A stretch of DNA of 64,000 nt from an uncultured Candidatus Saccharibacteria bacterium (GCA_964453135.1 CAYVOL010000001.1:88895-152894); one strand, 5' to 3'. Counted from the first letter of the stretch, positions 2,123 through 23,152 are shown. Notes: generated by a model not told the origin, from the letters alone. Program-made: numbers and translations.

Positions 2123-2129
2123 ATTATTT

Positions 2130-2771: not shown

Positions 2772-2781
2772 AAATAAAATG

Positions 2782-8073: not shown

Positions 8074-8079
8074 CGATAT

Positions 8080-8937: not shown

Positions 8938-8980
8938 AAATCTTGAAATATATCGGGTGAACGGGTAGAGTATAAAGATT

Positions 8981-9051
8981 GCCGGGTCGTCTAATGGTAG
9001 GACGTTTGGCTCTGAACCAAAAAATTGGGGTTCGACTCCCTGCCCGGCAGC
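8981..9051 (+). tRNA. tRNA-Gln (anticodon CTG)
   Basis: Manual cloverleaf: acceptor GCCGGGT/GCCCGGC, anticodon stem TTTGG/CCAAA with loop CTCTGAA, T-arm GGGGTTCGACTCCC; no encoded CCA. Confidence 0.7.
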
Positions 9052-9167
9052 TATCTTTCGCTAGAGCTACAGAATAGCATGTATTACACTTGTAGCAACT
9101 ATTCGTCGGGATTGGATTAGTAAAAAGTTCGGATTTTGTTTTCAGTAGACACAGCAGCGGTCAGCGC

Positions 9168-9196
9168 AATAAAAACCGCCTTTCAGCGGTTTTTCT
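9168..9196 (-). terminator. Rho-independent terminator downstream of copA (stem AAAACCGC/GCGGTTTT, U-tract on the minus strand)
   Basis: Hairpin 'aaaaccgcctttcagcggttttt' immediately 3' of the copA stop at 9202. Confidence 0.5.
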
Positions 9197-9201
9197 TCTG
9201 A

Positions 9202-11556
9202 TTAAGATTTTAGATTTTTCTCCACCCGCTTCAGAAGCACGGCATTCGTGGCCACCACGATCGAAGAAACAGACATGAGGAGCGCGGAAATTTCCGGTCG
9301 GAGCGAAAGGCCGTACGCTTTGTAGAACACTCCGGCGGCAACCGGAATCGCAAGTATGTTGTAAATCGCGGCCCAGAAGAGATTCTGTTTCATTTTCACG
9401 ACTGTCGCCTTGGAAAGGCGGATTGCCGCGACGATGTCGTAAGGATCGGATCTCATGAGCACGATATTGCCCGTTTCTATTGCGACGTCAGTCCCGGCGC
9501 CGATCGCGATGCCGATATCGGCTTGCGCCAAAGCCGGAGCATCATTAATGCCGTCGCCGACCATAGCGACAAATTTCTTCTCGTCTTGAAGCTGTTTTAC
9601 ATATTTCGCTTTCTCTTCCGGCAAAACTTCGGAAAATACGCGATCAATGCCAAGATCGCTTCCTACGACTTCGGCGACTTTTTTGTGATCGCCTGTGATC
9701 ATGACGACTTCGATGCCGAGTCCTTTGAGGCCAGCCACGGCTTTCTTTGCCGATGGTTTCACCATATCCGCGGCGGCAACGACGCCGGCAATATTTCCGC
9801 CGACGGCGAGCAAACTCAACGTTTTTCCTTCCCCAGCGAGGCGATCGAGCGTAGCACGCGCATCGCCGACGTTTACATTATTATTCGCCATCAACTTTTC
9901 TGTTCCAGCAAGCACGGTTTGCCCCTTAATCTCCGCTTTGAGGCCATACCCGGCAACCGACTCAAATTTCTCTATCGGTTCGAGCGGTACCGCACCTCGT
10001 TTCGTCGCTTCTTCCATGATTGCCTTTGCCAAGGGATGGTTAGATCCGAATTCAACACTTGCCTCATAGCGAAGAATTTCCTGCTCCGTGAAGCCGTTGA
10101 AAGCAGCGACATCGGTTACTTTCGGTTTGCCTTCGGTGAGCGTTCCAGTTTTGTCGAGCACGATCGCGTTGAGCCTTGATGTGTTCTCAAGCGTTGCAGC
10201 GTCTTTTATTAAGATACTGTGCTTCGCACCGACGCCGGTTCCGACGGCCACGGCTGTAGGCGTGGCAAGCCCTAAAGCGTCTGGACAAGCAATCACAACC
10301 GTGGAGACGGCAAACGTAAGCGCAGTTAAGAGCCCCGCGGCTGCGATAAAATACCAACCGAGAAATGCCGCAAGACCGGATCCGATCGCGACAATCACAA
10401 GCCAGCCAGCCGCCTTGTCCGCAATACGCTGGCCGGGCGCTTTGGAGTTTTGAGCCGTTTCTACCATCTTGATGATCTGCGCGAGCACCGTTTCGGAGCC
10501 GACCTGCATGGCCATGAACCTCACCGTGCCGTTCTGGTTCACCGAACCGCCGACGACTTTCGCGCCGATGGTTTTTGAAATCGGCATGGATTCGCCCGTT
10601 ACGAGAGATTCATCGATTGAAGTTTCTCCTTCGGTTATTTCGCCGTCAACCGGCACCTTGTCGCCCGGCCGCAGAACGACAATATCGTCGCGGACAATTT
10701 CCGCGCTCGGTATATTCATCTCGACACCACCGCGAATCACGTTCGCTTTCGGCGGCACGAGATCAAAAAGCGCGCGCAAAGCATCCGAGGTGCCGCGCCG
10801 CGATTTCATTTCCATCCAATGGCCGAAAAGCACGAAGGTTACCAGAAGCGCCGCCGCCTCATAAAAAGTTTCCGAATCCGGTTTGATAATCGTGAGAAGT
10901 ACGCTGAAAATATAGGCAGCCAATACGCCGGTGGCAATCAATACTGCCATATTGAGTTTTTTTGCTTTGAGCGAATAGTAGGTGCCGGTGATAAAAATGG
11001 AGCCGGTCCAGAAGACAATCGGCGTCGTGAGTACCAAGAGCGCCCAATTCAAAATCTGAGGCGATGCGATGTGAAGTTTTAGAAGATTCGCGCCGACCGG
11101 CGAGAAGAAGAAAATCGGAATGGACAAAATAAACGATATAAAAAATCTGCGCTTCATGTCGCGCTCCATCTGCTTTGCCATCGAGGGATCGGTCATTGCG
11201 GTCTCGTGATCCATGTGGCTCATCTTCGACATGTCATGCCCGGCGTGCTCGCCGCCCTTTCCGGCTTTTTTCTTCTCCGGAATCAGATCCATGCCGCACC
11301 CGGGGCATTTGCCCGGACCCGATTTGCGCACCTCCGGATGCATGGGACAGGTATAAATCGTTTCCCCACCGCTGTGACCGGCATGCTTCTTGTGCGCCAA
11401 TTTCTCGCCCATGCCGTACTCATATTGCTTCGCCTCCATGCCGCACCCGCAGGTGGCCGCGAGCTTTTCCGCGGCACAACCAAGGCACTCCTTGCCGCAC
11501 GCGCAATTAAGCTTTCTCTCTTTTTCCATATTCATATTGTGATGATCGTGATTCAT
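9202..11556 (-). CDS. copA: Copper-translocating P1B-type ATPase (CopA family). It has a His/Met-rich N-terminus with CxxC motifs and a 'CPMHP...CPGCGM' metal-binding motif. The TM6 motif reads CPD instead of CPC.
   Basis: 'DKTGTLT' phosphorylation site, 'GDGINDAPAL' hinge, 'TGES' actuator, 'IACPDALGLATP' in TM6, eight TM helices, 784 aa. Confidence 0.9.
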   Translation of the reverse strand: MNHDHHNMNMEKERKLNCACGKECLGCAAEKLAATCGCGMEAKQYEYGMGEKLAHKKHAGHSGGETIYTCPMHPEVRKSGPGKCPGCGMDLIPEKKKAGKGGEHAGHDMSKMSHMDHETAMTDPSMAKQMERDMKRRFFISFILSIPIFFFSPVGANLLKLHIASPQILNWALLVLTTPIVFWTGSIFITGTYYSLKAKKLNMAVLIATGVLAAYIFSVLLTIIKPDSETFYEAAALLVTFVLFGHWMEMKSRRGTSDALRALFDLVPPKANVIRGGVEMNIPSAEIVRDDIVVLRPGDKVPVDGEITEGETSIDESLVTGESMPISKTIGAKVVGGSVNQNGTVRFMAMQVGSETVLAQIIKMVETAQNSKAPGQRIADKAAGWLVIVAIGSGLAAFLGWYFIAAAGLLTALTFAVSTVVIACPDALGLATPTAVAVGTGVGAKHSILIKDAATLENTSRLNAIVLDKTGTLTEGKPKVTDVAAFNGFTEQEILRYEASVEFGSNHPLAKAIMEEATKRGAVPLEPIEKFESVAGYGLKAEIKGQTVLAGTEKLMANNNVNVGDARATLDRLAGEGKTLSLLAVGGNIAGVVAAADMVKPSAKKAVAGLKGLGIEVVMITGDHKKVAEVVGSDLGIDRVFSEVLPEEKAKYVKQLQDEKKFVAMVGDGINDAPALAQADIGIAIGAGTDVAIETGNIVLMRSDPYDIVAAIRLSKATVVKMKQNLFWAAIYNILAIPVAAGVFYKAYGLSLRPEISALLMSVSSIVVATNAVLLKRVEKNLKS

Positions 11557-11909
11557 TGGTTGGAAATGTTTTTATCTAAAAATAATGTCATGGCCATAGG
11601 CAGGAATCCAGCTTCCTCTAGAATTTCGAGCGGCGCTCCCCGCACTGCCATGACGCCGATGATCCAGATTGCAGCCCAGAGCGCCGTCCGCCGGATTCCG
11701 ATGTTGAGGAAAAGCAGCAGGGCGACGATCACGTCATTGATGCCGATCAGAACGACAAATGTGTTTGCGGCAACTGGTAGGATATTCGTTGCGAACGATC
11801 CATTGAGGAGCTCGATGAACTCCGCTGGCGCGAAGAATGCGGTCAATGCGTTTGCGAGGAACGCGAGCCCGAGGCCGATGCGGATGAGGAATCGATAGTT
11901 ATGGATCAT
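11553..11909 (-). CDS. Small four-TM membrane protein (DoxX-like); first gene of the copA operon. Start reassigned to MIHNYRF.
   Basis: Hydrophobic 118 aa. The ORF-track start at 11921 lies inside the predicted -10 box; the ATG at 11907-11909 follows the promoter. Its stop overlaps the copA start. Confidence 0.45.
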   Translation of the reverse strand: MIHNYRFLIRIGLGLAFLANALTAFFAPAEFIELLNGSFATNILPVAANTFVVLIGINDVIVALLLFLNIGIRRTALWAAIWIIGVMAVRGAPLEILEEAGFLPMAMTLFLDKNISNQ

Positions 11910-11911
11910 GG

Positions 11912-11949
11912 CTATTTCCATAATACCCCCATGGGGTATTTGCTGTCAA
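11912..11949 (-). promoter_or_regulatory. Sigma70-like promoter, TTGACA-N18-TATTAT, reading on the minus strand. The spacer holds a perfect palindrome ATACCCCCATGGGGTAT, a CsoR-type operator (copy 1). It drives the DoxX-like/copA operon.
   Basis: Minus-strand read: GTTGACAgcaaATACCCCATGGGGGTATTATggaaatagccATG. The arms ATACCCC/GGGGTAT match the G/C-tract inverted repeats bound by CsoR-family repressors. A second copy lies at 19525-19551. Confidence 0.55.
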
Positions 11950-12658
11950 CTGCGCGCCCTTTCCGCCATGCCAAATGCTCATATACGCTCGACCAGAGGA
12001 AACCCAAGCCGAAGGCGAACATCAGCTCCTCGAGCGGGATGCCGGCAAGGAGGATTCCCGAAATTGCGGGCAGATTCCAGACGCGCTCGACGTACCCCGG
12101 ATATACCGCAATGAGCGTAAGAAAATAAAGGAAATACAAACCTAGGAACAAGAATGCGCTTGTAATCATCTTCTTTTTGAGATCGGGGCGGCAGTACCAT
12201 GTGGCAAACCCTCCCGCGATCATGGCGATGAATGCGGAATAGATGGGATTGAGGCGAGTCGCGGCAAGAAACGCGGCGAAAATGATCGGGGCGGAAAGAA
12301 GCGACCAGAGGTGGTATTTGTGCCGAGGATCGTGCCGCTCCATGAAAGAGACCGGCTCGTGGCGCACCTTGAATATCCAGTCGTAGAGCGCCACCGCAAT
12401 GCCGCCCATTGCGAACGAGAAAATTATGCTTTCGATATCAAAGCCCGTTCGGTGCGCAAGATCAAAGAGCGAGGGCGGATTCCAGTACGCCGGAACGAAA
12501 AGCGGCTCGGTGAAACCGAGAAGCGATGTCCACAAACTCACGAGAAACATTTCTTTTCTTCCTTCTCTGCTCCGGAACGCGAAATAGATAAATGCCCAAA
12601 TCGCAAGAAGCAACAAACTCCAGAGCAGCCACGCGAATTGCGGTTCATGCGGACTCAT
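11912..12658 (-). CDS. Polytopic membrane protein (248 aa) with 'PLEEL' motifs reminiscent of lycopene-cyclase-domain (CrtYcd-like) proteins; function unknown
   Basis: ORF track; multiple TM helices; motifs 'EPLFVPAYW' and 'GIPLEELMFAFG'. The 5' end overlaps the promoter region by a few nucleotides, so the true start may be internal. Confidence 0.45.
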   Translation of the reverse strand: MSPHEPQFAWLLWSLLLLAIWAFIYFAFRSREGRKEMFLVSLWTSLLGFTEPLFVPAYWNPPSLFDLAHRTGFDIESIIFSFAMGGIAVALYDWIFKVRHEPVSFMERHDPRHKYHLWSLLSAPIIFAAFLAATRLNPIYSAFIAMIAGGFATWYCRPDLKKKMITSAFLFLGLYFLYFLTLIAVYPGYVERVWNLPAISGILLAGIPLEELMFAFGLGFLWSSVYEHLAWRKGRAVDSKYPMGVLWK

Positions 12659-12665
12659 GCTCTAA

Positions 12666-12851
12666 TTATATTCCTTCTTTTCTTTTTTTCGATGGACTGA
12701 CTCCCTCCGGAATATATTTGATCGGCGTTTTCTCGAATTCCTCCTTGCATGCTTTGCAGCAGAAGTAAAAGTTGTTGCCGCCGTATTTCAAGATCGCATA
12801 CTCCTGCTTTCGCCGAAGCTTCTTCCCACACACAGGATCAACGTTGAACAT
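12666..12851 (-). CDS. YHS-domain (TRASH-like) small metal-binding protein
   Basis: 'DPVCGKKL...YGGNNFYFCCKACKEEF' is the YHS-domain pattern; 61 aa. Confidence 0.7.
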   Translation of the reverse strand: MFNVDPVCGKKLRRKQEYAILKYGGNNFYFCCKACKEEFEKTPIKYIPEGVSPSKKRKEGI

Positions 12852-12863
12852 GATTTTGGTTGG

Positions 12864-13514
12864 TTAATTTTGTTTCGACCGCAATTTCGGAATAAACGAC
12901 GGCACGCGTGCCGCATAGGCGCCCCACGCGGGCCCGAATTCTTTCTGTGATTCTTTTTCTTCACTCCGTGCCAAACGAACGTACGCCACGATAAGAATCG
13001 GAAACATGGCGAGGGTGACGAGCGTCGGCCACTGAAGCAGAAACCCAAGCATGATGATGACGAAGGCGGCGTACTGCGGATGGCGGATGCGCGCATACGG
13101 GCCTATGGTTGCAAGCGCATGCTGTTTCTGCGCGGCATGCAAGACATCCCACGCCTTGGCGAGCAGTATGAAGCCGAAGCCGATCAGGATGTAGCTTGCG
13201 ATGTGGAAGGGTCCGAAATGCGGATCCCCGCCCCAGCCAAAAAGGTCTTCCAAGAGATGGCCGGAGTTATGTGCCAAAAGGTCAATGCCCGGCACGCGCT
13301 TCACTAGCCATCCCGAAACGAGATAGATCGTGAGCGGGAATCCGTACATCTCGGTGAAGAGCGCGACGATGAACGCCGAGAATCCGCCGAGCGATCGCCA
13401 GTCGCGGGCGGTTTTCGGCTTCACGAAACTGGTCGCAAACGCGATAAAGATCGCTGAGTTGATGATGACGAGCGGCCAGAGGCCGTAACCGTTTTCCATG
13501 GAAGTTAATGGCAA
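12864..13514 (-). CDS. Isoprenylcysteine carboxyl methyltransferase (ICMT/PEMT) family membrane methyltransferase
   Basis: 'GPYARIRHPQYAAFVIIMLG' signature plus multiple TM helices. Confidence 0.75.
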   Translation of the reverse strand: MPLTSMENGYGLWPLVIINSAIFIAFATSFVKPKTARDWRSLGGFSAFIVALFTEMYGFPLTIYLVSGWLVKRVPGIDLLAHNSGHLLEDLFGWGGDPHFGPFHIASYILIGFGFILLAKAWDVLHAAQKQHALATIGPYARIRHPQYAAFVIIMLGFLLQWPTLVTLAMFPILIVAYVRLARSEEKESQKEFGPAWGAYAARVPSFIPKLRSKQN

Positions 13515-13780
13515 CAGGAGTGTCCTCCGCCGTGCTTGATTGATTCGGCCTTTTTGGGATCAGCTGCCGCGTGGCTCGAATGATCTTCGGTATCTTGCGA
13601 TCCATGCCCGCGACGCATCATCCAAAGATGCGCAACAACCATCCCGCCGATAATGAGGATAAACGGCCATGATCTGACCCCTCCCCCGGCGGCGAAGATG
13701 ACGAAACCGAGGATAAGCAGGCATGGCAGCATCATCCATATCATGGATGAATTGTGCTTTTCGTTGTTGTTGTCGTTCAT
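13505..13780 (-). CDS. DUF2933-like small membrane protein with a His/Cys-rich C-terminus (start set at MNDNNNEKH)
   Basis: Single TM helix 'MIWMMLPCLLILGFVIFAAGG', 'HLWMMRRGHG...HGGGHSCCH'. The family is typical of metal-resistance loci. Family assignment is from recall. Confidence 0.5.
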   Translation of the reverse strand: MNDNNNEKHNSSMIWMMLPCLLILGFVIFAAGGGVRSWPFILIIGGMVVAHLWMMRRGHGSQDTEDHSSHAAADPKKAESIKHGGGHSCCH

Positions 13781-13929
13781 GTTTTTGAGATTTAATTTGT
13801 ATTCTACCTTTGCTATGCCGCATATTTTTCCGAATCTCCGTCGAAGTGCTCCTTGCAAGATTGCAAACAAAAGTAATTGAGCAGCCGTTAACCAGCGGAT
13901 TATCCGCGTAGCTGCAAACGCCCGTATTA

Positions 13930-14193
13930 CTACTTTTTCTCGATTAAGCTCGTGTTATGCATCCAGACGTAGTACCACGCGAAGATCCACGAGAAGGCAA
14001 ACGCGTAGAGCGCCATCAGGATGAAGCCGCCGAATGTACCCCACGTAACGCCGGGAAACGTTTCGAAAATCTGGTGGTGCAGCTGGATTCCCGCGTCAGA
14101 TCGAAGCGGCAAAAATCCTCCAAGCCAGCAGACGACAAGCACGATTTCCCCGCCCAAAACGCAAAGCCATCCGTATCGTTTGAGTGAAAGCAT
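13930..14193 (-). CDS. Small two-TM membrane protein, hypothetical
   Basis: ORF track; hydrophobic; same-strand packing within the island. Confidence 0.4.
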   Translation of the reverse strand: MLSLKRYGWLCVLGGEIVLVVCWLGGFLPLRSDAGIQLHHQIFETFPGVTWGTFGGFILMALYAFAFSWIFAWYYVWMHNTSLIEKK

Positions 14194-14202
14194 GTTGGTA
14201 AA

Positions 14203-14589
14203 TTATTTTATGTTATCGACGACCTTTTTTAATTTCTCTTCTACCTGCGCGGCGATATCGGCCAGGACGCGGTTTTTAACCATCCCCATCGCCGCAGTCG
14301 GCAGAATTGCAGATACATATGTTTTCTTGCCATCCTCGTAGACAATCACATTGCACGGCAGGAGGAGCCCAATATCCTTTTCCGTTTTCAATGCTTCGTA
14401 GGCGAGCGGCGGATTGCACGCGCCCAAGATGAGGTAATTTTCGTATTCAACATCAAGCTTCTTCTTGAGCGTCTCTTTCACGTCGATCTCCGTAAGTACG
14501 CCGAATCCTTCTTTTTGCAATTCGGATTTTATTTTCTCTACCGCTTCCTCGAACGGAAGTGAGATTTGTCTTTTATAGCCGTAGTTCAT
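14203..14589 (-). CDS. DUF302-domain protein
   Basis: 'GFGVLTEIDVKETLKKKL...YLILGACNPPLAYEAL' matches the DUF302 pattern; 128 aa. Confidence 0.7.
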   Translation of the reverse strand: MNYGYKRQISLPFEEAVEKIKSELQKEGFGVLTEIDVKETLKKKLDVEYENYLILGACNPPLAYEALKTEKDIGLLLPCNVIVYEDGKKTYVSAILPTAAMGMVKNRVLADIAAQVEEKLKKVVDNIK

Positions 14590-14619
14590 TTTATTTTTTC
14601 TATATTCTTGCTTCGGCCT

Positions 14620-15075
14620 TTAAAGCTGCCACGTAAATTTCCGCTCGCTTATCCCACCCACATCGCGGACGATGACCGTAATGGATGCGGGTTTGGGCGA
14701 AATCTGCGCAAAGACAAGCGTGCCGTTCCGGTGGTGCCCGCCGGGCGGTGGTCCTTCCCATCTGATCGGCGCAACTGTATCGCCCCGATCATCGGTGAGC
14801 GTCACGATTTTTGTCATGTCTTCATCAAGGCTTCCCGCGTGCGTATTAAGACCAACGCCGATGCTCCATTCGCCTGAAGAGAGATCTATCGGCTGGACTT
14901 GAACTTCTATTGTGCCCTGCGAATCGTATTTTGCTTCGTATACGGACGCTGAGGAATTTCCCTGCGGCAAAACAGCCGCTGGCGCCGGTTCTTTTCTTGA
15001 TCCAATGAGCGCCCAGAGAAAAAATCCGGCAGCGGCAATCACAAGAATAGTTATGATGAGATTTGATTTTTTCAT
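14620..15075 (-). CDS. Membrane-anchored or secreted hypothetical protein (151 aa)
   Basis: N-terminal signal anchor 'LIITILVIAAAGFFLWALIG'; no recognised domain. Confidence 0.45.
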   Translation of the reverse strand: MKKSNLIITILVIAAAGFFLWALIGSRKEPAPAAVLPQGNSSASVYEAKYDSQGTIEVQVQPIDLSSGEWSIGVGLNTHAGSLDEDMTKIVTLTDDRGDTVAPIRWEGPPPGGHHRNGTLVFAQISPKPASITVIVRDVGGISERKFTWQL

Positions 15076-15515
15076 TGGCTGTGTCGTTTAAATTTCATGA
15101 TTCGACTATACAGGAACGCAATGCCGCCAAGATTGAATGCGATGCCGACCCAGAAAAACTGCACTTGATAGACGCTGATGAACGACACGAAGGCCGAGAC
15201 GCCTAATACCGGCAGGATATTCACGAGATAATGGGCACAGCAGGAAATTATCGCTCCAGTCGAGGTGGCGCCAGTTACCGCAAGCAGCTTGCCGCTCGGA
15301 TCTTTGGCGCGCACCAATGCCTTGAGATAGCTATATAAGCCGACTTGGATTCCAAAACCAGACGCAAGACTTATAATGAAGTACCAAAACTGCGAGAACT
15401 GGCTCGCCGCAAATATTAGCCCCGATATCACAGACACAACCCCGAAATAAACCGCAAGGAGAATGGCTGCTGCTTCAAATCCTTTTATGATTGATGGGGC
15501 AATGATGCGATCCAT
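15072..15515 (-). CDS. Four-TM membrane protein, hypothetical (contains 'CCAHY')
   Basis: ORF track; hydrophobic; its stop overlaps the start of the upstream gene (15072/15075). Confidence 0.45.
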   Translation of the reverse strand: MDRIIAPSIIKGFEAAAILLAVYFGVVSVISGLIFAASQFSQFWYFIISLASGFGIQVGLYSYLKALVRAKDPSGKLLAVTGATSTGAIISCCAHYLVNILPVLGVSAFVSFISVYQVQFFWVGIAFNLGGIAFLYSRIMKFKRHSQ

Positions 15516-15517
15516 AG

Positions 15518-16141
15518 TTATTTCAACTTGGCGAGTTCTGTTGCGACCTTGTCGTTGTCAATCGCCATATTCGGATCGTCGAACGTATAGCGTACAATCC
15601 CCTGTTTGTCGACAAGAACGAAGCTGTGTCCAGGAAACGATCCGTAGTGCATCGAGGAAGGAACCGCGAGCATGCCGAATTTCCGCGAAACGGATTTGTC
15701 GGTATCGAAGAGCAGCGTCGCCTTTCCTAGTTCTGGCATTTTCTGCACCGCGCTCTGCCAGCTCGACGGCTGGTCTATTACCACCGAGAAGGCAACCGTG
15801 TCCGGTCCCGTAAACCGAGGATCGGTTGCAAGCGATACCATCTGGTTCCAGCACGCGGGGTAACACATGATGCCTTCGTTAAAGAATAACACCGCTTTTT
15901 TCCCTTTCAAGCTCTCATTTGAGTATTCGGTCCCGTTGCGGTCCCGGAGCGAAAATGCCGGAACAGCTTTTCCTATGAGATCGCCATAGGATCCCGAAGA
16001 GTCCGAACCGCCAGAGTGCATTGGATCGCCGGTTGTCCCTCCTGATTGCGAATTTCCGCGGCTCATGAAATAGAAGCCGCCAACGACGAATGCGATGATC
16101 GCGATGCCCGCGACAATTGTTGATGTGTTTTTATTTTTCAT
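15518..16141 (-). CDS. Thioredoxin-fold redoxin (TlpA/ResA/AhpC-TSA-like thiol-disulfide oxidoreductase), membrane-anchored
   Basis: N-terminal TM helix, 'KAVLFFNEGIMCYPACWNQ' CxxC active site, thioredoxin-fold length. Confidence 0.7.
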   Translation of the reverse strand: MKNKNTSTIVAGIAIIAFVVGGFYFMSRGNSQSGGTTGDPMHSGGSDSSGSYGDLIGKAVPAFSLRDRNGTEYSNESLKGKKAVLFFNEGIMCYPACWNQMVSLATDPRFTGPDTVAFSVVIDQPSSWQSAVQKMPELGKATLLFDTDKSVSRKFGMLAVPSSMHYGSFPGHSFVLVDKQGIVRYTFDDPNMAIDNDKVATELAKLK

Positions 16142-17043
16142 GGTTGTTGTTTTTCTTTTTTCCCGCCCGAGGCGGATCCGCCTTCGGCGGAAAGCTGGCG
16201 GATGCCGGTTGCCGCGAGCCAGGCGAAAATCACCACAATGAGAATCGCCCAGACGAACTGCGGCACGCCGCCGATGAATTGGTTAAGCCACATTTGGACT
16301 TTTGTAAGGAAGATGTTCACGTTGATCTGTAATTCGGAATGCATGGCGACATTGCCGGTCAATGCCCATATCAAGGTCAATACGCCCATAACCGCGAAGG
16401 TCGCTCCGGCGAGGAAATCCGATATCCGAAATGTTTTATCTTTTCCGAAGATGCGGACCGTGACTGGCTTCCGCGCACCAAAAAGCCGATCAGTCAAATG
16501 CGAGCGATCAAACATCAAAGAAAGAGCAAAGAGCGGCGCGACCATGCCGAGCACATATGCCAAAGTATAGACGATTCCCCAGAGGTACGACCCCGGGAGC
16601 ATAGAGAGCGCAAGCGCTCCCGCCAATACCGGCGCACAGCAGGTGGTCGCAATGCCGGAAAAAATGCCCAGCATATAAACGGACCCGATGCTTTCCTTTC
16701 CGGTAAGTTCCGGCTTCGGCCGAAACCGCTTCGGTAGCGCAAACCGGCGGCCAGTAAGAAGTGAGATGCCGAGCGCAAGTAGCACTAATCCGATGACAGT
16801 AAAGATTATCGAGTGGTAGCGGCTGAAAATCTGGCCGAGCGCCGAGATGCCAAGTCCGAGCGGCAGGAAAACCGTCATGATGCCGAGAAAGAAAATGAAT
16901 GTCATCAAAAACACCTTCCGACGCGTCCTAAAGATCGAACCGAGATACGACGGCAGAAGCACTGTAACACAACATGGGGCGAAAAGCGCCGCTACCCCTG
17001 CGATGAATGCCGCTATAAGCGATGTGCCAATGAGTATTTCCAT
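16138..17043 (-). CDS. ccdA: Cytochrome c biogenesis protein CcdA / DsbD-family transmembrane thiol-disulfide electron transporter
   Basis: 'FIAGVAALFAPCCVTVLLPSYLGS' and a second conserved Cys ('ATTCCAPVLAGAL') in a polytopic membrane protein. Confidence 0.8.
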   Translation of the reverse strand: MEILIGTSLIAAFIAGVAALFAPCCVTVLLPSYLGSIFRTRRKVFLMTFIFFLGIMTVFLPLGLGISALGQIFSRYHSIIFTVIGLVLLALGISLLTGRRFALPKRFRPKPELTGKESIGSVYMLGIFSGIATTCCAPVLAGALALSMLPGSYLWGIVYTLAYVLGMVAPLFALSLMFDRSHLTDRLFGARKPVTVRIFGKDKTFRISDFLAGATFAVMGVLTLIWALTGNVAMHSELQINVNIFLTKVQMWLNQFIGGVPQFVWAILIVVIFAWLAATGIRQLSAEGGSASGGKKEKQQP

Positions 17044-17047
17044 AGCG

Positions 17048-18079
17048 TTATACCCCGCAACCGCCTTGTTGCCTCTGCGGCTGAATTATTTGCGACTGTC
17101 CGCTGTCCACGCCGCATCCGCCTGGGCGTTGCGTCGGCGGTTCGGGAACGACAAGCGATTGAATTCTCGCGTATCCTTGTATGCTTGAGTACGAAGCTCC
17201 CAGTACTTCAGCCGGATTCACCGATGACCAATTCGTTCCTTTGCTTTGGAAGTATCGCGCAATAGTCCGGTAGGTGTCCGGAAACCAGTAGGAGTTCACG
17301 GCGAGCGCGGTTTTGTACATTTGATCTTCGCTCGCGCCCTGCGAAGCCATGAGCTCTAAGAGCCCAAGCATCGCCATGCCGTGGTTGCAATCCGGAAAGT
17401 ACGTCGAGTTACCGCAACAGGGGCGGTAGATTCCCTTGGCAACCTTTTCAACGAGCGCCTGCTGATCCTCTGTAAGCGCCACAAACTGATGCTTTGAGTA
17501 ATGACTCATGGCATTACCAACGGCAATCGTCCATCCGCCGGTTGATGCAAACCTGCCCGCTCCGCCATACTGCGGATCTTGCATTGGACCTTGCTCAAGA
17601 ATCCGGTTCTTATTGCCAAGACCGAACGCCCAAAGAAGATTCAATACCGCGCCGCTATTCTGCGGAGTAATTTTAAGGTTGCCGTTATCGGGCGAATCAA
17701 GCAACGCCTGCACATCAGAAGGCATTCCTCCGCGTTGCGCATAGAGAGCCTTGAATTGCGTTTCGTCAACTACGCCCGACTGCGCAAGTCGCTTGCCAAG
17801 ATCGCCCCAGCGCACCGGCAGCGCGACGCCTTCCTGCGGCGTAATCGCCTCGGTCAAGGCATCAGCCGATTGCGCGGAGCTCTGTTGCTGCTTCACTGCT
17901 TTGCTTCTTTCCGCCTTCAATCCGGTAGTATATATCCATGTTCCGGAAAACACGAGGACGGAAATAAGAATGCTCCACGCGAGGAAATGGTCTTTTTTCG
18001 GCTGCTCAGGATTGGAGCTTTCGTTATTTAATTCCGCGCGCTCTTCTATTATTTTATCATTGTCTTCCATGTTATTCAT
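17048..18079 (-). CDS. Hypothetical exported or membrane-anchored protein with conserved cysteines ('YRPCCGNSTYFPDCNHGMAM') and a C-terminal 'GGCGV' duplication
   Basis: ORF track; N-terminal TM segment; Cys motifs; no family recognised. Confidence 0.45.
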   Translation of the reverse strand: MNNMEDNDKIIEERAELNNESSNPEQPKKDHFLAWSILISVLVFSGTWIYTTGLKAERSKAVKQQQSSAQSADALTEAITPQEGVALPVRWGDLGKRLAQSGVVDETQFKALYAQRGGMPSDVQALLDSPDNGNLKITPQNSGAVLNLLWAFGLGNKNRILEQGPMQDPQYGGAGRFASTGGWTIAVGNAMSHYSKHQFVALTEDQQALVEKVAKGIYRPCCGNSTYFPDCNHGMAMLGLLELMASQGASEDQMYKTALAVNSYWFPDTYRTIARYFQSKGTNWSSVNPAEVLGASYSSIQGYARIQSLVVPEPPTQRPGGCGVDSGQSQIIQPQRQQGGCGV

Positions 18080-18563
18080 CGCAGCATTCGGCGAGCTTGG
18101 CCACGATGTCTTCGAGGCTCACACTGCCTTTTGCCGCCTTTTTTATAGTTTGGCCTTTGATAAGTTTTAATTTGAGTGCCCAAAAAATGGAGTACGCCTT
18201 GTAGGCGTTTTCGAATGTTTTCTTGGCTTTTTCCTTTTCTCCTTCAACATGCAATTTATTGCCGACTTCGATGAGGCGCATCGTGGCGGCCAAGAGATGC
18301 TTTGAGATACACCACGTTTCGCCCTCATGCTTCGGCATAAGCTGAGCCAAAAGTTCCTTGCGCAATTCCCGAATCTCTGCTGAAGTATCAAAGTATTCGT
18401 CTTGTTTTGTTTTAACGCCTGTAAAGAAAAAATGCTCTTCAAGGCTTATGAGATTCATAACCGCCAAGCTCAAATCCTCGGCAGTGGAAAGATCCACGCC
18501 TGCGTTTTCTTTTTGAGTTTCTATTTTTTTGAGAAATTCCTCAAGGGTCAATTTTGTTTCCAT
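18072..18563 (-). CDS. Hypothetical protein (163 aa) ending in 'LAECCDE'
   Basis: ORF track; coding-like periodicity; no domain recognised. Confidence 0.4.
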   Translation of the reverse strand: METKLTLEEFLKKIETQKENAGVDLSTAEDLSLAVMNLISLEEHFFFTGVKTKQDEYFDTSAEIRELRKELLAQLMPKHEGETWCISKHLLAATMRLIEVGNKLHVEGEKEKAKKTFENAYKAYSIFWALKLKLIKGQTIKKAAKGSVSLEDIVAKLAECCDE

Positions 18564-18581
18564 GTGAACGTTGTTGTTGAT

Positions 18582-18734
18582 TTAGTAGTTCCAGTAACCG
18601 CCCGTAACCACTTGTGCACCAGGTGCCGCTGGCGCTATTAGGCGATGTTGCATCATGCGGTAAGTCTGCCCTGCCATCAAGACAATCGCCACGATGACTG
18701 CTGGAATGATGGAGGTTGATTCTTTCTTGCTCAT
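18582..18734 (-). CDS. Possible unannotated small membrane peptide (50 aa, MSKKESTSIIPAVIVAIVLMAGQTYRMMQHRLIAPAAPGAQVVTGGYWNY)
   Basis: My own translation of the minus strand; it is below the ORF-track length cutoff. One TM helix; same strand and spacing as its neighbours. Confidence 0.3.
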   Translation of the reverse strand: MSKKESTSIIPAVIVAIVLMAGQTYRMMQHRLIAPAAPGAQVVTGGYWNY

Positions 18735-18831
18735 TATGACTTTTTGGCGCAGTAATAATTTCCATCTGAAGACGAAAAAACCGCATTGGAAATCGGTTTA
18801 TGCCGTGAATAAGCGCGTGAAAAGTTCGCTG

Positions 18832-19254
18832 CTAATTCATGGCGCAAATAATGAAAGGGTCCCGCTTCTCATGGAGCGAGAGCCAGCGTAGCATAAGCAC
18901 GCGGGAAGCAAACAATCTTTCTAGGAAATCTCGTATTGAAAACTGCGGATGCGAATCGCCGATATCTTTTGAGCGCATGCTGGAAAACAACACAAGTACG
19001 AACATGGCAAGCAGAAAGCCGATAAACGGAAACGGCCGGAGCGCAGCAATGAACAAGCCCTGAATAGCTCTAATGTGGTATTTTAGGTGTTCAAACGGCG
19101 TCACAGCCGTTGCACAATTGGTATTCTCAATGGCGCCGATGCAGGCAGGCGAATGACCTTGATTGCGAGTCATGGTGTAAGCCCCAAAAATTGCAGCTCC
19201 CACGAGAGCGATGAAGAGTGCGGCTGATATAATTGTTTTAAGCGTGATTCTCAT
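18832..19254 (-). CDS. Membrane protein, hypothetical (141 aa, start MRITLKTII), directly downstream of csoR
   Basis: TM helices; 'GHSPACIGAIENTNCATAV' Cys/His motif; one-nucleotide gap to the csoR stop. Confidence 0.45.
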   Translation of the reverse strand: MRITLKTIISAALFIALVGAAIFGAYTMTRNQGHSPACIGAIENTNCATAVTPFEHLKYHIRAIQGLFIAALRPFPFIGFLLAMFVLVLFSSMRSKDIGDSHPQFSIRDFLERLFASRVLMLRWLSLHEKRDPFIICAMN

Positions 19255-19255
19255 A

Positions 19256-19515
19256 TTATCTTCGCTGCGCCGAATGATAGACTTTGAGAATTTCATCGGT
19301 CGCTTTTTTCCCTTGACCCGACTTCATCTGCATCGCGACATGCGTTGACAAATGGTTTTGCAAAAGAAGTCCGTCAATGCCTGAAAGCGCCTGCTTAATC
19401 GCGGATGATTGTGTGATAACATCAATGCAGTATTTGTCTTCGCGGATCATCTTCTCAAGGCCGGCCAACTGGCCCTTCACGATCTGAAGGCGACGAAGAG
19501 CTTTTTTCTTCAAGA
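19256..19515 (-). CDS. csoR: CsoR/RcnR-family (DUF156) metal-sensing transcriptional repressor (start set at METVLKKK)
   Basis: 'LRRLQIVKGQLAGLEKMIREDKYCIDVITQSSAIKQALSGIDGLLLQNHL...H' matches the CsoR helix bundle with its Cys/His ligands. The ATG at 19513-19515 sits just after the promoter -10. Confidence 0.75.
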
Positions 19516-19518
19516 CTG

Positions 19519-19556
19519 TTTCCATGCTGGTAGTATACCCCCATAGGGTATTTGCT
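19519..19556 (-). promoter_or_regulatory. Sigma70-like promoter, TTGACA-N18-TATACT, with the CsoR-type palindrome ATACCCCCATAGGGTAT in its spacer (copy 2). It drives csoR, implying autoregulation.
   Basis: Minus-strand read: TTGACAgcaaATACCCTATGGGGGTATACTaccagcATG. It matches the block at 11923-11949 at 26 of 27 positions. Confidence 0.55.
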
Positions 19557-19606
19557 GTCAAGCACTCCCGTGGATAACCCAAAATCCAAAGTAAATATAT
19601 TTTTGT

Positions 19607-20272
19607 TCATAATTCTATAAAATCTTTTATCACTTGCTCATTAAAGGTAGTAAAAATTTTGATTCTGCCAAGTTTTGTGAGGATGATTTCGCCGTCGTAG
19701 TCGTTGGGGGCTAGATATACATTGTCAGGATACTTCTTTACGAGTGCGGTAAGCTGCTGGATCAAATTCGGATCACATTGATACTTCTTACAATTATATT
19801 GAATCAGCACGCCGGGCTTTCCTTTACCGTCGGCATGCTCAAGCATGTGCCGCTGAATTGCGTCCGGAAGCGACGTGGCGGAAATGTGAGCATTTGGCGA
19901 CTCTTCAATATGCCCCTGCACATCGGTGGGCGGCAAGTTCGGCCGGGTTGAAAGATACCAGATCCCGAACGCGGCGATGCCAGCGAAAATTGCGGTATAG
20001 CTGACGCGCTTTGCAAAACGAATAAATGCACGTCGACGCTCCTCTCCTACGTGTAGAATGTTCTTCGCTTTACGCGCGGATGATTTTTCTGAGTTCTTCG
20101 CGGCGGAAACGACGAACTGATCGATTGCATGCTTGATAATTTCGATATTGCAGGTCTTATGCTCCTTGCACCACGCTTCGCACTGCTCCGCAATCGCTTT
20201 TTTCGCGTAGATGAGCTTGCACTCGCCGCATTGATGGTAAGTGCCGCCGCTTTTTTGAATGACGTTGGTCAT
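19607..20272 (-). CDS. Hypothetical protein with an N-terminal Cys4 cluster, one TM helix and a C-terminal domain resembling DUF3105-type proteins
   Basis: 'YHQCGECK...CEAWCKEHKTC', TM helix 'YTAIFAGIAAFGIWYL', 'PGVLIQYNCKKYQCDPNL...YLAPND'. The DUF assignment is from recall only. Confidence 0.4.
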   Translation of the reverse strand: MTNVIQKSGGTYHQCGECKLIYAKKAIAEQCEAWCKEHKTCNIEIIKHAIDQFVVSAAKNSEKSSARKAKNILHVGEERRRAFIRFAKRVSYTAIFAGIAAFGIWYLSTRPNLPPTDVQGHIEESPNAHISATSLPDAIQRHMLEHADGKGKPGVLIQYNCKKYQCDPNLIQQLTALVKKYPDNVYLAPNDYDGEIILTKLGRIKIFTTFNEQVIKDFIEL

Positions 20273-20302
20273 ATAATTTTATTCGTGGCGATTTAATATG
20301 AA

Positions 20303-20860
20303 TTATGGCGCACACACTAACGGATCGGCAATTTTCTTCGCTATGGCCCCGATGGCAATAAACAACAAAATTATGCCAAGCAGTCCAAATTCTCCTCCTC
20401 GAAGAGGAAGGGTTGCGATTGCTCCTGATGCGCCGAGAAGCGAGAGCGCGCCAGTCGCAATGACCGATCCGCACGCAGCACAACCGATCCCCAATATGCC
20501 GCTTATCATGCCGCCCGCGCCGAAGACGACTCTGCTTTTGGCCACCTCGAATCTTCGTGAAAAATAGTAAGCGACCATCGCGGCATATATTCCGAAGAGC
20601 GCGGCAATCACAATCGTGTACGCCGCGGAGAATATTGAGAAGTTGGTGCTGATTCCGCCAAGAAGATTTATAGGCAGCTGAACGCGCAAGATCCATGGCG
20701 CATTTCCATCTTGAAGCGTATGGTAGATCAACCCGAAATTCGGAAGCCATACTGCGAATGTGAAAACTGAGACGCTCACCGCAAACGCAAGAACAATATA
20801 GCGGATTTTCGAGAAAACCTGCTTGAAAGCGAAAAAGGTTGTTTTTGCGTAACGTGCCAT
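20303..20860 (-). CDS. Polytopic membrane protein, hypothetical (185 aa)
   Basis: Hydrophobic, Gly/Ala-rich TM helices. Preferred over the overlapping ORF 20157..20867 in another frame. Confidence 0.45.
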   Translation of the reverse strand: MARYAKTTFFAFKQVFSKIRYIVLAFAVSVSVFTFAVWLPNFGLIYHTLQDGNAPWILRVQLPINLLGGISTNFSIFSAAYTIVIAALFGIYAAMVAYYFSRRFEVAKSRVVFGAGGMISGILGIGCAACGSVIATGALSLLGASGAIATLPLRGGEFGLLGIILLFIAIGAIAKKIADPLVCAP

Positions 20861-20867
20861 AATTCAA

Positions 20868-21635
20868 CTATTTTTTCTGAAGAGCGATATCAATGACCGA
20901 TTTGAATACCGAATACGGCTGAGCGCCTTGTACCAACTGGCCGTTGATATAACTGGTGGGCGTGGAATTCACTCCAATTGCGCTTGCTGCATCCCGATCT
21001 TTTTGAACTTGTGAAACATGTTTATTGCCGTCATAGCAGCTCGTAAATGCGTTCACATCGAGCCCTGCCTTTCCGGCCAAACTCACAAAGAGCGTGCGAT
21101 TAAGATTTCCGCTGTTTTCTTTCCCGTCAGCAATTTCGGCCTTATACAATTCATCGTGGTATGCCCAAAATTTTCCCTGGTCTTTGGCACATTCCGCGGC
21201 CGCTCCGGCATTTGTCGATTCCTGCCCGAGAAACTGGAAGTTGCGGAAGACCATTTTTACTTTGCCGATCTTGATATACTCGTCGCGAAGCTGCGGCTCG
21301 ACTTGACTAAACATGCGGCCGCAGAACGGACATTGATAGTCGCCGTATTCAATAAGCGTGACCGGCGCGTTTTGATCGCCCAAAATGACATCACGCCCGC
21401 CGATTTTAAGCGCCTCAGCGAGATTTGCAGATGGCGTCGGCTGATTATTGCCAACTGCCACTTGCTGCGGCGCGCTCCCGCCTGTTGATTTTCCTGCAGA
21501 GTAAATAACCGATCCGGCAATCAAAACGCCGGCGATGAGAATCGAGGCAGACAGCATAAAGCTGTTCGATTGTCTGGATTTTTCTTCTACGATTTGTTCT
21601 TCTTTTTGTTCGTGATGCTTGTGGTGTTCGTGCAT
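20868..21635 (-). CDS. DsbA-family thiol:disulfide oxidoreductase (thioredoxin fold), membrane-anchored
   Basis: 'LIEYGDYQCPFCGRMF' CPFC active site, N-terminal TM anchor, His-rich N-terminus. Confidence 0.8.
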   Translation of the reverse strand: MHEHHKHHEQKEEQIVEEKSRQSNSFMLSASILIAGVLIAGSVIYSAGKSTGGSAPQQVAVGNNQPTPSANLAEALKIGGRDVILGDQNAPVTLIEYGDYQCPFCGRMFSQVEPQLRDEYIKIGKVKMVFRNFQFLGQESTNAGAAAECAKDQGKFWAYHDELYKAEIADGKENSGNLNRTLFVSLAGKAGLDVNAFTSCYDGNKHVSQVQKDRDAASAIGVNSTPTSYINGQLVQGAQPYSVFKSVIDIALQKK

Positions 21636-21717
21636 GGTTTTGAATAATTAATGGTTGATGAATTCGTAAACAGCAGCCGCTTTGCGGTTGCCAAAACAAA
21701 ACGCAACCGATGGGCGG

Positions 21718-22137
21718 CTAAACAGAAAAGGCTACGCCGTAAATTTTAGGATGGATGATGCCCTGACTAAATGCCTTGGTTAGGTAATCAAAGATTTTTG
21801 GAATAAGCGCTCGAATTGAAAACGAACCTGATGGTGCAGCATTGTTTTTAACTGCTGATTTTGCAATCGATTGTGGATATGGAAAAACGAGCGATAAAAG
21901 GACGAAAGGTAAGAAGCTAAAAAATATCCAGTTTTGGTTCTGTAGCGGAAGCGCGCTCAAAAAATTCAACATGCTGCACCCCTGCGCTATGCGGTGCATG
22001 GGATCCACATTTGGCATGCCGCAAATCACGGCGGCCATCATCACAATAACGATTACCGGGTATACAATAATGCTGCTTCGGGGGGGTGACAAAAAAATCA
22101 TATTTATCAATATACCTGTAAATTTGTCACTAATCAA
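21718..22137 (-). CDS. Membrane protein, hypothetical (139 aa). Composition is back at the AT-rich host level.
   Basis: ORF track; TM helices. Confidence 0.35.
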   Translation of the reverse strand: MISDKFTGILINMIFLSPPRSSIIVYPVIVIVMMAAVICGMPNVDPMHRIAQGCSMLNFLSALPLQNQNWIFFSFLPFVLLSLVFPYPQSIAKSAVKNNAAPSGSFSIRALIPKIFDYLTKAFSQGIIHPKIYGVAFSV

Positions 22138-22347
22138 TTTCCCCTCTCATCACTTTTCTATCCCTTAAAATTAGATTGTCTTAGATAGATATTATCAGCT
22201 CCCTTTTCTCGCCTGATAATCCTTTGTCCTGCCAGAACCAGAATATATATAGTATTTGATGCCGAGACCAGAAAGCTTTTTTAGTCCAAGCTGACTCTCC
22301 AGAAACGTTTGTGGGGCTTGTATGGATTAGGTACCGTGGAGAATGCA

Positions 22348-22381
22348 GTAAATTATACAAAACCCCCGCAAGCGCGGGGGT
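22348..22381 (-). terminator. Rho-independent terminator for the 22415..22972 gene (stem CCCCCGC/GCGGGGG, then TTTTGTATAATTT on the minus strand)
   Basis: Hairpin at 22363-22380 followed by a U-rich tract on the minus strand. Confidence 0.55.
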
Positions 22382-22414
22382 TGAGAGCATGCTTGTCCTA
22401 TCCTATGTCCTATC

Positions 22415-22972: not shown

Positions 22973-23152
22973 ATTCTTGTTTTAGATTGGTTATTGCGTC
23001 GACCTTTGCTTAAATATACGGCAGACTGGCTTATGTTGTTACAGGTATGTCAGCATCGCCGATAAATCATATTGGCTCTAATGCTGTCAAAAGCGCGGAT
23101 CTATGCGGTCCACGATATACCCGCTGAATGTCTCATCCGACAAAAGAACTGC

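Follow-up and report, generated by a model that had tools for sequence, protein, structure and literature searches.

Gene content and extent of the island

The DNA studied here is a 64-kb segment of one contig from an uncultured Candidatus Saccharibacteria bacterium (GCA_964453135.1, CAYVOL010000001.1:88895-152894). This whole stretch, at its full length, is called the window, and positions are counted from its first letter. Between the gene for tRNA-Gln(CTG) and typA it carries an island of 12.4 kb and 19 genes (9,202-21,635), among them a P1B-type heavy-metal ATPase, a CsoR-family repressor, proteins with thiol motifs and several membrane proteins of unannotated families (Table 1). Our comparisons make it likely that this island is one copy of a metal-stress cassette of ~10-12 kb, most likely for copper, which circulates horizontally among groundwater Patescibacteria.

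Table 1. Features of the island and of its flanks in the window (aa, amino acids; TM, transmembrane helix; ORF, open reading frame; L170, a cassette copy in another genome)
Feature	Position	Strand	Remarks
def	7516-8073		upstream of tRNA-Gln(CTG)
fmt	8080-8937		upstream of tRNA-Gln(CTG)
tRNA-Gln(CTG)	8980-9051	+	ARAGORN; left backbone landmark
Terminator-like hairpin	9171-9194	.	A-run and T-run at its sides; would serve both strands
P1B-type heavy-metal ATPase (copA), 784 aa	9202-11556	-	Pfam E1-E2_ATPase, Hydrolase, HMBD; TIGR01511
Small membrane protein, 118 aa from ATG 11909	11553-11909	-	opens the ATPase transcription unit
Promoter-operator P2 (predicted)	11920-11949	-	inside the 3' end of the upstream lycopene-cyclase-domain gene
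Lycopene-cyclase-domain membrane protein, 248 aa	11912-12658	-	PF18916, 66.5 bits; 10/80 CopA loci
YHS-domain protein, 61 aa	12666-12851	-	PF04945, 51.8 bits; Cys-rich FCCKAC motif
ICMT/PEMT-family membrane methyltransferase-like protein, 216 aa	12864-13514	-	PF04140, 30.9 bits
Small membrane protein	13505-13870	-	His-rich tail ending GGGHSCCH; 11/80 loci
Two-TM protein, 87 aa	13930-14193	-	unannotated family; 16/80 loci
DUF302 protein, 128 aa	14203-14589	-	PF03625, 89 bits; same position in L170
g14620, membrane-anchored extracytoplasmic Ig-like beta-sandwich, 151 aa	14620-15075	-	invariant H79, W106, H114-H115
Four-TM protein, 147 aa	15072-15515	-	invariant SCCAHY motif; alignment A2; unannotated family
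Membrane-anchored thioredoxin-fold protein, 207 aa	15518-16141	-	C-Y-P-A-C (CxxxC); Redoxin, AhpC-TSA
CcdA/DsbD-type membrane protein, 301 aa	16138-17043	-	APCC and TCCAP; PF02683, 37.2 bits
g17048, membrane-anchored extracytoplasmic protein, 343 aa	17048-18079	-	CcmH-like helical domain; unannotated family
Cytoplasmic helical protein, 163 aa	18072-18563	-	alignment A8: SLEEH, ETWCxxKH, C-terminal CC
Membrane protein, 154 aa (or 140 aa from ATG 19254)	18832-19296	-	directly after csoR
CsoR-family repressor, 89 aa from ATG 19525	19256-19525	-	PF02583, 79.3 bits
Promoter-operator P1 (predicted)	19532-19561	-	before csoR
Cys-rich ribbon (DUF7128-like), one TM and extracytoplasmic DUF3105-like domain, 221 aa	19607-20272	-	sub-threshold Pfam matches
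Membrane protein, 185 aa	20303-20860	-	GCxxCG in a TM helix, C-terminal Cys; alignment A5
Membrane-anchored DsbA/BdbD-like thiol oxidase, 255 aa	20868-21635	-	CPFC; right-hand end of the cassette
Three small ORFs	21718-22972	-	host-like 43% G+C; no family match; flank, not cassette
typA/bipA	23153-24994	-	right backbone landmark

An earlier sequence-only reading of this locus had named most of the cargo, and its calls of ATPase, YHS, ICMT, DUF302, Redoxin/AhpC-TSA, DsbD_TM, Trns_repr_metal and DsbA/Thioredoxin_4 all exceed the curated cut-offs. Two others fall below them, namely DoxX for the 118-aa protein (best match 21.8 bits, cut-off 23.6), which is DoxX/MauE-like only at sub-threshold level, and DUF2933 for the protein with the GGGHSCCH tail (best match 14.8 bits, cut-off 21), the true start of which is probably internal, at ~13780. 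The lycopene-cyclase-domain protein was missing from that list. Nine ORFs gave no significant match in Pfam, NCBIfam or PHROGs, and at least five families travelling with the cassette have no Pfam model.

The GC-rich island seen in the earlier reading is real: between 9.2 and 21.6 kb the DNA is foreign in G+C content, in G+C at third codon positions (GC3) and in its use of codons and tetranucleotides. The G+C content is 46.2% for the whole window, 52.1% at 9052-18100, 47.1% at 18101-21700 and 45.0% in the remainder, a background higher than the ~40% first proposed. Both the richest 9-kb and the richest 12.65-kb stretches of the 64 kb begin at 9001, and the cumulative G+C curve turns upward at 9219 and downward, from its maximum, at 21555. 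Mean GC3 is 0.588 for the 19 island genes versus 0.492 for the 48 other genes (Mann-Whitney p = 1e-6), with 0.614 in the core (9202-18079) and 0.531 in the distal part (18072-21635; p = 0.015). In synonymous codon usage the core stands at a distance of 5.45 from the rest of the window and the distal part at 4.34, where random gene sets, used as the null, gave 2.22 ± 0.37 with a maximum of 3.59. Sliding tetranucleotide scores likewise showed that the window is not uniform, with z = +3 to +5.7 over 9-22 kb and still +2.6 to +5.1 after normalisation for base composition, the lower-GC distal part included. Since the excess extends to GC3 and to synonymous choice, amino-acid composition was rejected as its source.

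The boundaries differ somewhat from those first drawn. The switch in composition had been placed exactly at the 3' end of the tRNA; it lies instead at the copA stop codon (9202), 150 bp farther on, beyond an AT-rich spacer of 40.7% G+C. A reversion near 21.7 kb was borne out by a drop at 21.6 kb, but an earlier step exists at 18.1 kb. It also holds that all island genes are on the minus strand and tightly packed, with overlaps or gaps of at most 60 nt and a single exception of 268 nt; the single-strand run was nevertheless rejected as a feature of the island, because minus-strand genes go on to ~34.6 kb.

Other patches of 50-55% G+C occur in the window at 4-6.5, 23-25, 40-41.5 and 57-61 kb. 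The second atypical patch (57300-60800; also 40441-41028) has 53-55% G+C and a tetranucleotide z of about +3, and bears plus-strand ORFs at 57366-57947, 58435-59115, 59126-59752 and 59779-60738. The first and third of these are paralogues, both ending in RRQRMD(S/A)RRFVW. Three ORFs of this patch were scanned (57366-57947, 59779-60738 and the antisense 58534-59238) and had no match in Pfam or PHROGs, while the ORF at 40441-41028 has a GC3 of 0.69 and no family match.

Regulation, the pump and the metal

As judged from its promoters, the cassette is a CsoR regulon with two near-identical predicted promoter-operators. A direct repeat of 27 nt (D5), identical at 26/27 positions (96%), lies at 11923-11949 and 19535-19561, and both have the coding-strand sequence TTGACA-GCAA-ATACCC(C/T)ATGGGGGTAT, with the box overlapping the -10 element (TATTAT or TATACT). 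P1 precedes csoR and consists of TTGACA, 18 nt and TATACT, with the CsoR box ATACCCTATGGGGGTAT (19535-19551). P2 precedes the small membrane protein and the ATPase and consists of TTGACA, 18 nt and TATTAT; its spacer and -10 are overlapped by the CsoR box ATACCCCATGGGGGTAT (11923-11939). Of all sigma-70-like matches in the region, these two score best (11/12), and the operator box has the form ATACCC(C/T)-N3-GGGGTAT. This palindrome equals the CsoR box of C. glutamicum, ATACCCCnnnGGGGTAT (PMC5057107), and fits the type-2 operator TAC-N9-GTA defined for S. lividans CsoR (PMC3902906). Concerning related loci (numbered with an L below), the box stands before csoR in 18 of 25 occurrences, before copA in L084, L103, L166, L169 and L170, and before a multicopper oxidase gene in L169. 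In the window, as well as in L084, L166, L168, L169 and L170, exactly 6 nt separate the -10 of the csoR promoter from the ATG, a spacing that implies leaderless csoR mRNAs. The operon and transcript boundaries are putative.

The repressor scores well above its Pfam cut-off of 22.8 bits, whereas its best NCBIfam match, RicR, stays below that model's cut-off. Its predicted ligands are C33-H58-H62, an x-C-H-H fingerprint in place of x-C-H-C, and 31 of 35 homologues share it; the other four, which are C-H-C, adjoin canonical CPC pumps in the same loci. The x-C-H-H subgroup is defined by T. thermophilus CsoR, which is considered likely to sense Cu(I), with relaxed specificity (PMC11672702, PMC5057107). 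The window protein shares with it the replacement of the second Cu-ligand Cys by His (PMC11672702), but lacks a His near the N-terminus (Thr3), and in T. thermophilus the neighbouring genes encode a P1B-1 CopA and a CopZ, unlike in the window, where the CPD pump comes without CopZ. Compared with the CsoR operons of Gram-positive bacteria (M. tuberculosis cso, B. subtilis copZA, S. lividans csoR/copZA, C. glutamicum), the cassette has in common the PF02583 repressor and the G-tract type-2 operator before both csoR and the P1B ATPase. It differs from them in the x-C-H-H sensor instead of C-H-C, in CPD instead of CPC, in the absence of CopZ/HMA, in the apparently leaderless csoR mRNA and in ~15 additional membrane or extracytoplasmic genes under or beside the same control. 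The membrane protein encoded directly after csoR is only 26-30% identical in relatives, yet that position is always filled.

The ATPase bears the DKTGT and GDGxND motifs, YN(x)4P (YNILAIP) and MxxSS (MSVSS) in TM5/TM6, and a His/Cys-rich N-terminus. It scores 582.7 bits with TIGR01525 and 564.6 bits with TIGR01511, the copper subfamily, each of which exceeds the curated cut-off (397 for TIGR01511). Its fourth transmembrane helix (TM4) carries CPD (ACPDALG) rather than CPC, and so do 83/83 orthologues, while paralogues read CPC or SPC there. Nor is it a CopB by motif, having CPD and MSVSS for CPH and MSxST. Pfam shows only HMBD (PF19335) at the N-terminus and no ferredoxin-like HMA domain with CxxC. 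The CPD variant was recorded once, as a novel subtype, in three Rhizobiales (PMC5552934), and our literature search found no experimentally characterised member of this subtype. The nearest plasmid-borne relatives are from Rhodococcus (51% identity, CPD/MSGSS). The window pump shares the CPD of TM4, YN(x)4P and MS(G/V)SS with these and with the Rhizobiales variant (PMC5552934), and a His-rich N-terminus with P1B-3 CopB (CPH); in contrast, it is at most 51% identical to the plasmid-borne CPD pumps and its N-terminus also has HMBD and Cys-rich motifs. An orthologue, 61% identical, of the small membrane protein preceding the ATPase also precedes copA in L169. On the conjugative plasmid pC of Rhodococcus pyridinivorans (L173, NZ_CP113801.1, 5602-8605), the pump adjoins a short 'alkylmercury lyase' gene and an HMA-domain gene.

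In the mechanism that we propose, the metal-free CsoR-family repressor would occupy P1 and P2. Metal, presumably copper, entering the cytoplasm would free the repressor and permit transcription from P1 (csoR and the genes behind it) and from P2 (the small membrane protein and the ATPase), and the CPD pump would send the metal out of the cytoplasm. The Cys/His/Met-rich proteins encoded between csoR and P2 may bind, relay or buffer the exported metal and keep thiols reduced, the CcdA-like protein supplying reducing power or a path, while the block of dsbA, the GCxxCG membrane-protein gene and the DUF3105-like gene could aid secreted proteins in oxidative folding or in repair. The multicopper oxidase of relatives would oxidise Cu(I). 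The inducing metal and the roles of the unannotated proteins are our deductions.

Copper is favoured by the copper-subfamily score of the pump together with its YN(x)4P and MxxSS motifs, by the multicopper oxidase in three relative cassettes and by T. thermophilus CsoR, another x-C-H-H protein, which counts as a Cu(I) sensor (PMC11672702). That the cassette was acquired, but chiefly for something other than Cu(I) (Cu(II), Zn, Ni, Co, Cd, thiophilic Ag/Hg or a broader set), is unlikely in our judgement. It would agree with the CPD found in place of CPC/CPH in every orthologue, with the prevalence of the x-C-H-H sensor and the pairing of C-H-C sensors with CPC pumps, and with T. thermophilus CsoR, which answers several metals in vitro and whose Cu(I) specificity is not firmly settled (PMC5057107, PMC11672702). 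The alkylmercury-lyase gene beside the closest plasmid-borne CPD pump points in the same direction. Vicinal Cys pairs in membrane helices, comparable with those of the cassette, are also present in the MerT/MerF mercury transporters. However, the pump lies above the curated copper cut-off and keeps Cu-type motifs, the multicopper oxidases belong to three collinear cassettes and in one of them stand behind their own CsoR box, a CsoR of proven copper function has an identical operator, and no MerR, MerA, CzcD or RcnA-type genes are among the family matches of the cassette.

Copies in other genomes and probable horizontal acquisition

A CopA scan of metagenome contigs led to 80 loci with 59-84% identity, mostly from aquifer samples, across which the accessory families recur in shuffled order. 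Searching with the 343-aa g17048 protein, we were able to identify five collinear copies of the cassette. L169 is a 12.8-kb contig of 52.6% G+C with the gene order of the window and ~71% nucleotide identity to it over ~9 kb. The copy of L166/L167 is flanked by genes for enolase and glutamate dehydrogenase, and that of L170 by genes for NUDIX, PfkB and a restriction enzyme. L168 has a large serine recombinase gene directly upstream of csoR, with Thoeris TIR, S24 peptidase and methyltransferase genes beyond it, and L084 is an 18-kb contig in which csoR lies ~0.8 kb from one contig end. The cassette has 50-57% G+C within flanks of 43-49% in L166, L168 and L170, and a multicopper oxidase forms part of it in L166, L168 and L169. 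Across 42 looser loci the G+C of the cluster follows that of the host and exceeds it by 2.1 points on average; at +7 the window is among the largest, which indicates a poorly ameliorated copy and argues against long residence, and thus against the old or decayed insertion that had been suggested.

The L168 recombinase (Resolvase, Recombinase and Zn_ribbon_recom domains) belongs to a region (1-9129) with two ThsB-TIR (Thoeris-like) genes, an S24 peptidase and an N6/N4 methyltransferase, which resembles a mobile or defence island in a Patescibacteria-like contig.

The backbone of the window was compared with that of its relatives. TypA shares 74% identity with that of a Candidatus Wolfebacteria metagenome-assembled genome (MAG) and 57-64% with those of other Paceibacteria-type MAGs, and the Fmt homologues come from sources named Patescibacteria, Wolfebacteria or Jorgensenbacteria. 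The next-best Fmt among 5.8 billion proteins is only 64% identical, so there is no close sibling genome and backbone synteny was used instead. L161 and L163 (Fmt 61-62%, TypA 58% identical) keep a small ORF (g9x), def, fmt and tRNA-Gln(CTG) convergent with typA. Between the tRNA and the 3' end of typA there are 5.3 kb in L161, 2.8 kb in L163 and 14.1 kb in the window, and in both relatives the interval holds unrelated genes, with no copper gene and no cassette. The interval is therefore variable and the cassette is an extra occupant of it. Backbone synteny was absent from L164 and L165, two of the four relatives looked up, and a TypA scan of species genomes showed little synteny, L062 having def-fmt near typA in another orientation. 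Alignment of the DNA downstream of tRNA-Gln in relatives showed no homology beyond the tRNA. In L161 an ORF with a faint LAGLIDADG_3 match (11283-11990) sits between fmt and tRNA-Gln(CTG), which we take as an added sign that this junction is a variable spot.

The proteins of the cassette and of the backbone also differ in their degree of relatedness. CopA of L087 and L126 is 80% and 72% identical to that of the window, while the adjacent TypA is only 46-47% identical; these two TypA proteins are ~50% identical to everything else and 48% to each other. The sequence-only reading had proposed a horizontally acquired copper-efflux island, and the foreign composition, the cassette-free L161 and L163, the five unrelated contexts and the CopA/TypA mismatch agree with it. 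As far as best matches tell, the donors were other Patescibacteria-like organisms and not a distant phylum, and horizontal spread within a Patescibacteria-dominated gene pool is supported by these comparisons.

As a putative route of acquisition, integration targeted to the tRNA had been suggested from the adjacency of tRNA and island, but our results lend it no support. A search of the whole window for the 22-nt 3' end of tRNA-Gln, with up to 3 mismatches, revealed no second copy, and no flanking direct or inverted repeats were found in 8-26 kb. Family searches of the ORFs of 8.9-23.2 kb detected no recombinase, integrase or transposase, in agreement with the earlier statement that the island has no integrase, and the window holds no homologue of the L168 serine recombinase. 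The copies elsewhere are mostly not beside a tRNA and never beside the same one; tRNA adjacency was consequently rejected as a general property of the cassette. The only mobility gene beside any copy is the large serine recombinase of L168, which is not a tRNA-type tyrosine integrase. Mobile copper loci are known from S. aureus (copXL, and copB-mco on SCCmec or plasmids) and from the copper homeostasis/resistance island of enterobacteria (PMC5947656, PMC6191537, PMC4824010). As in those, an accessory pump and extracytoplasmic copper-binding proteins would move as a block and supplement core homeostasis; unlike them, the cassette is found in uncultivated Patescibacteria, uses other accessory families and has no recognisable mobile-element backbone in the window copy.

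A native, vertically inherited cluster would explain the G+C excess by constraints on its genes (membrane proteins rich in Ala/Gly/Leu/Val) or by expression, and the differing contexts by the general loss of synteny in Patescibacteria. We regard this as improbable. In its favour, the cluster G+C of the 42 loci follows that of the host contig (33-64%) with a positive excess in 36 of them, which means that part of the excess is intrinsic; moreover, synteny around typA and fmt is poorly kept in many relatives, and the close homologues all appear to be on Patescibacteria-like contigs. Such an origin does not account for a +7-point excess that is also present at third positions and synonymous codons, for tetranucleotide usage that stays foreign after GC normalisation, for flanks that adjoin without the cluster in L161 and L163, for a CopA 72-80% identical beside a TypA 46-47% identical, or for the serine recombinase abutting one copy.

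Several points weigh against a circulating copper cassette. The exchanges of Cys for Asp in the pump and for His in the sensor bring in harder ligands, and the metal range could differ from Cu(I) or be broader. The cassette has no CopZ/HMA chaperone, and the window copy is without the multicopper oxidase of three relatives. CsoR binding and expression of the cassette are predictions. No integrase, transposase or attachment (att) repeat was found in 8.9-23.2 kb. The best non-self relatives are 84% identical for CopA (JGI metagenomes), 77% for g17048 and 73% for g14620, with 64% for Fmt, which speaks for acquisition, but these values come from different collections and from proteins of unequal evolutionary rate. 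Finally, the backbone relatives are distant (TypA 58%), and loss there instead of gain here is possible.

Some observations concern the surroundings of typA. Clusters with a CPD pump lie directly downstream of typA, in the same orientation, in L087 (8083-12121) and L126 (3856-9408), which represent two deeply divergent lineages, and nearly so in the window (21635-24994); L087 also has a tRNA-Gln(CTG) 3 kb upstream of typA. Downstream of typA there may thus be a hot spot of insertion, or else an anchoring point for exchange. A Cupin_2 protein is encoded at 33765-34301 of the window, 12 kb off, and homologues 41-69% identical to it stand beside a copper cluster in five loci (L087 12310-12765, L166 1940-2314, L124, L126 and L150); although only loosely linked to the copper genes, it may belong with them functionally.

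Accessory proteins and thiol chemistry

Clustering of the g17048 family at 90% leaves more than 6,300 members, and clustering at 50% gives 734 clusters; the family has no Pfam or NCBIfam model, and 'hypothetical' is its only description. The protein has an N-terminal anchor, the invariant motif YRPCCGNSxxFPDCNHGMAMLG and a C-terminal GGCG. The core of its AlphaFold model is confident; Foldseek gave no significant match in the PDB. A CcmH-like three-helix periplasmic domain was recognised by a fold match to CcmH, while the Pfam CcmH model did not match even at E up to 10 and PCCGNSxxFPDCNHG stands where CcmH has LRCxxC. The g14620 gene is invariably paired with the SCCAHY gene (15072-15515), and fold matches to CrdA-like sandwiches were obtained among the accessory proteins. 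The SCCAHY family is present in 27 of the 80 loci, usually just before copA. It has no Pfam match, and profile searches of PDB sequences with alignments A1 and A2 found nothing; for a relation to the GCxxCG family, hhalign gave a probability of only 35%.

The CcdA-like protein bears a vicinal Cys pair in each half (APCC, TCCAP), kept in 19-20 homologues, whereas canonical CcdA/DsbD has one essential Cys per half. The thioredoxin-fold protein has a conserved MCYPACW (CxxxC) in place of WCxxC, and its PDB-sequence matches are TlpA-like or peroxiredoxin-like. The cytoplasmic helical protein (18072-18563), for which Pfam, NCBIfam and PHROGs gave no match, is a candidate metal buffer or chaperone. 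Orthologues of the ICMT protein are 66-77% identical in L168, L169, L170 and L084, and the DUF3105-like protein has an orthologue in L169 (59% identity) and is similar to a DUF3105 gene product of L166. DsbA (Thioredoxin_4 116.7 bits, DSBA 62.9 bits; PDB matches BdbD 6e-22, ScsC 1e-7) is by sequence an ordinary BdbD-like CxxC oxidase. The GCxxCG membrane-protein gene always follows dsbA; no match to the DsbB or VKOR families was found in the cassette, and L087 has a VKOR gene in that slot. A periplasmic-disulfide module, as first proposed, thus stands as regards DsbA, while the Cys-Cys pairs of the CcdA-like protein and the CxxxC of the redoxin point equally to metal. The recurrence of vicinal Cys-Cys suggests metal ligation or relay rather than plain disulfide exchange.

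The nearest known parallels are the Scs system and the CcdA/DsbD-ResA/CcmG-CcmH relay, with which the cassette has in common a DsbD_TM protein, an anchored thioredoxin-fold protein and a CcmH-like domain side by side, a DsbA with detectable similarity to ScsC and a copper-related context. It departs from them in its Cys-Cys pairs, in CxxxC for CxxC and in CC...C-x-H for LRCxxC; no cytochrome c maturation genes are nearby, and its DsbA resembles BdbD and actinobacterial DsbA (6e-22) more than ScsC (1e-7). As the cassette lacks the defining features of the known systems (C-H-C, CPC/CPH, HMA, CxxC, LRCxxC, att with integrase), we did not place it as a member of any of these families. It is conceivable, and we put it forward only tentatively, that it represents an undescribed extracytoplasmic pathway for copper or thiophilic metals, typical of Patescibacteria, in which a CPD pump and an x-C-H-H CsoR would be joined to a relay with Cys-Cys, CxxxC and His-His sites, the unit having spread between deeply divergent lineages, possibly to a preferred site downstream of typA. 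The proposed members of this relay are the CcdA-fold protein with its two CC pairs, the CcmH-like CC...C-H-M-M protein, the SCCAHY protein with the beta-sandwich and the CC-tailed cytoplasmic protein.

The same proteins could be thought to provide copper for the maturation of extracytoplasmic cuproenzymes (multicopper oxidases, NirK-like), with the pump feeding a Sco-/CcmH-/CcdA-like assembly line instead of detoxifying the cell, which seems to us very improbable. CxxxC is the motif of Sco-type assembly factors, and the thioredoxin-fold protein resembles them in this respect; the order of CcdA, thioredoxin-fold and CcmH-like proteins mirrors a maturation relay, and a multicopper oxidase belongs to the cassette in three relatives. 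A repressor released by metal, however, follows the logic of a stress response, the window copy has no cuproenzyme gene, and the Pfam SCO1-SenC model gave no match. Hardly credible is a chimera of assembly or binning that joined foreign DNA to a Patescibacteria contig, for although the contig is metagenome-derived, its composition shifts sharply at both ends of the island and the sole records of proteins identical to those of the window are a 181-kb NCBI contig and short Logan contigs not spanning the junctions, the two flanks form one conserved neighbourhood in L161 and L163, which a random mis-join would not recreate and which speaks against mis-assembly, and relatives of the cassette lie within contigs of 48-693 kb with similar low-GC flanks.

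The genomes of Patescibacteria are small, and dependence on a host is assumed for these bacteria. The literature searched contained no description of a copper cassette in them. An imported, tightly regulated block of 19 genes and ~12 kb in a small genome would imply that metal stress is a real selective force in aquifers, and that Patescibacteria swap sizeable adaptive cassettes among themselves. The cassette also ties large unannotated families to a defined regulator, operator and pump, making their function directly testable in a heterologous host, and the strict pairing of CPD pumps with C-H-H sensors, and of CPC with C-H-C, offers a natural experiment on the co-evolution of pump and sensor ligands.

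Proteins identical to g14620 were also found on two short Logan contigs (L171 and L172, from the SRA runs SRR5161805 and SRR5161795). L171 additionally contains a DUF302 gene and an 87-aa ORF, with the sizes of the next two genes in the window, and the two runs probably sample the population of the source genome.

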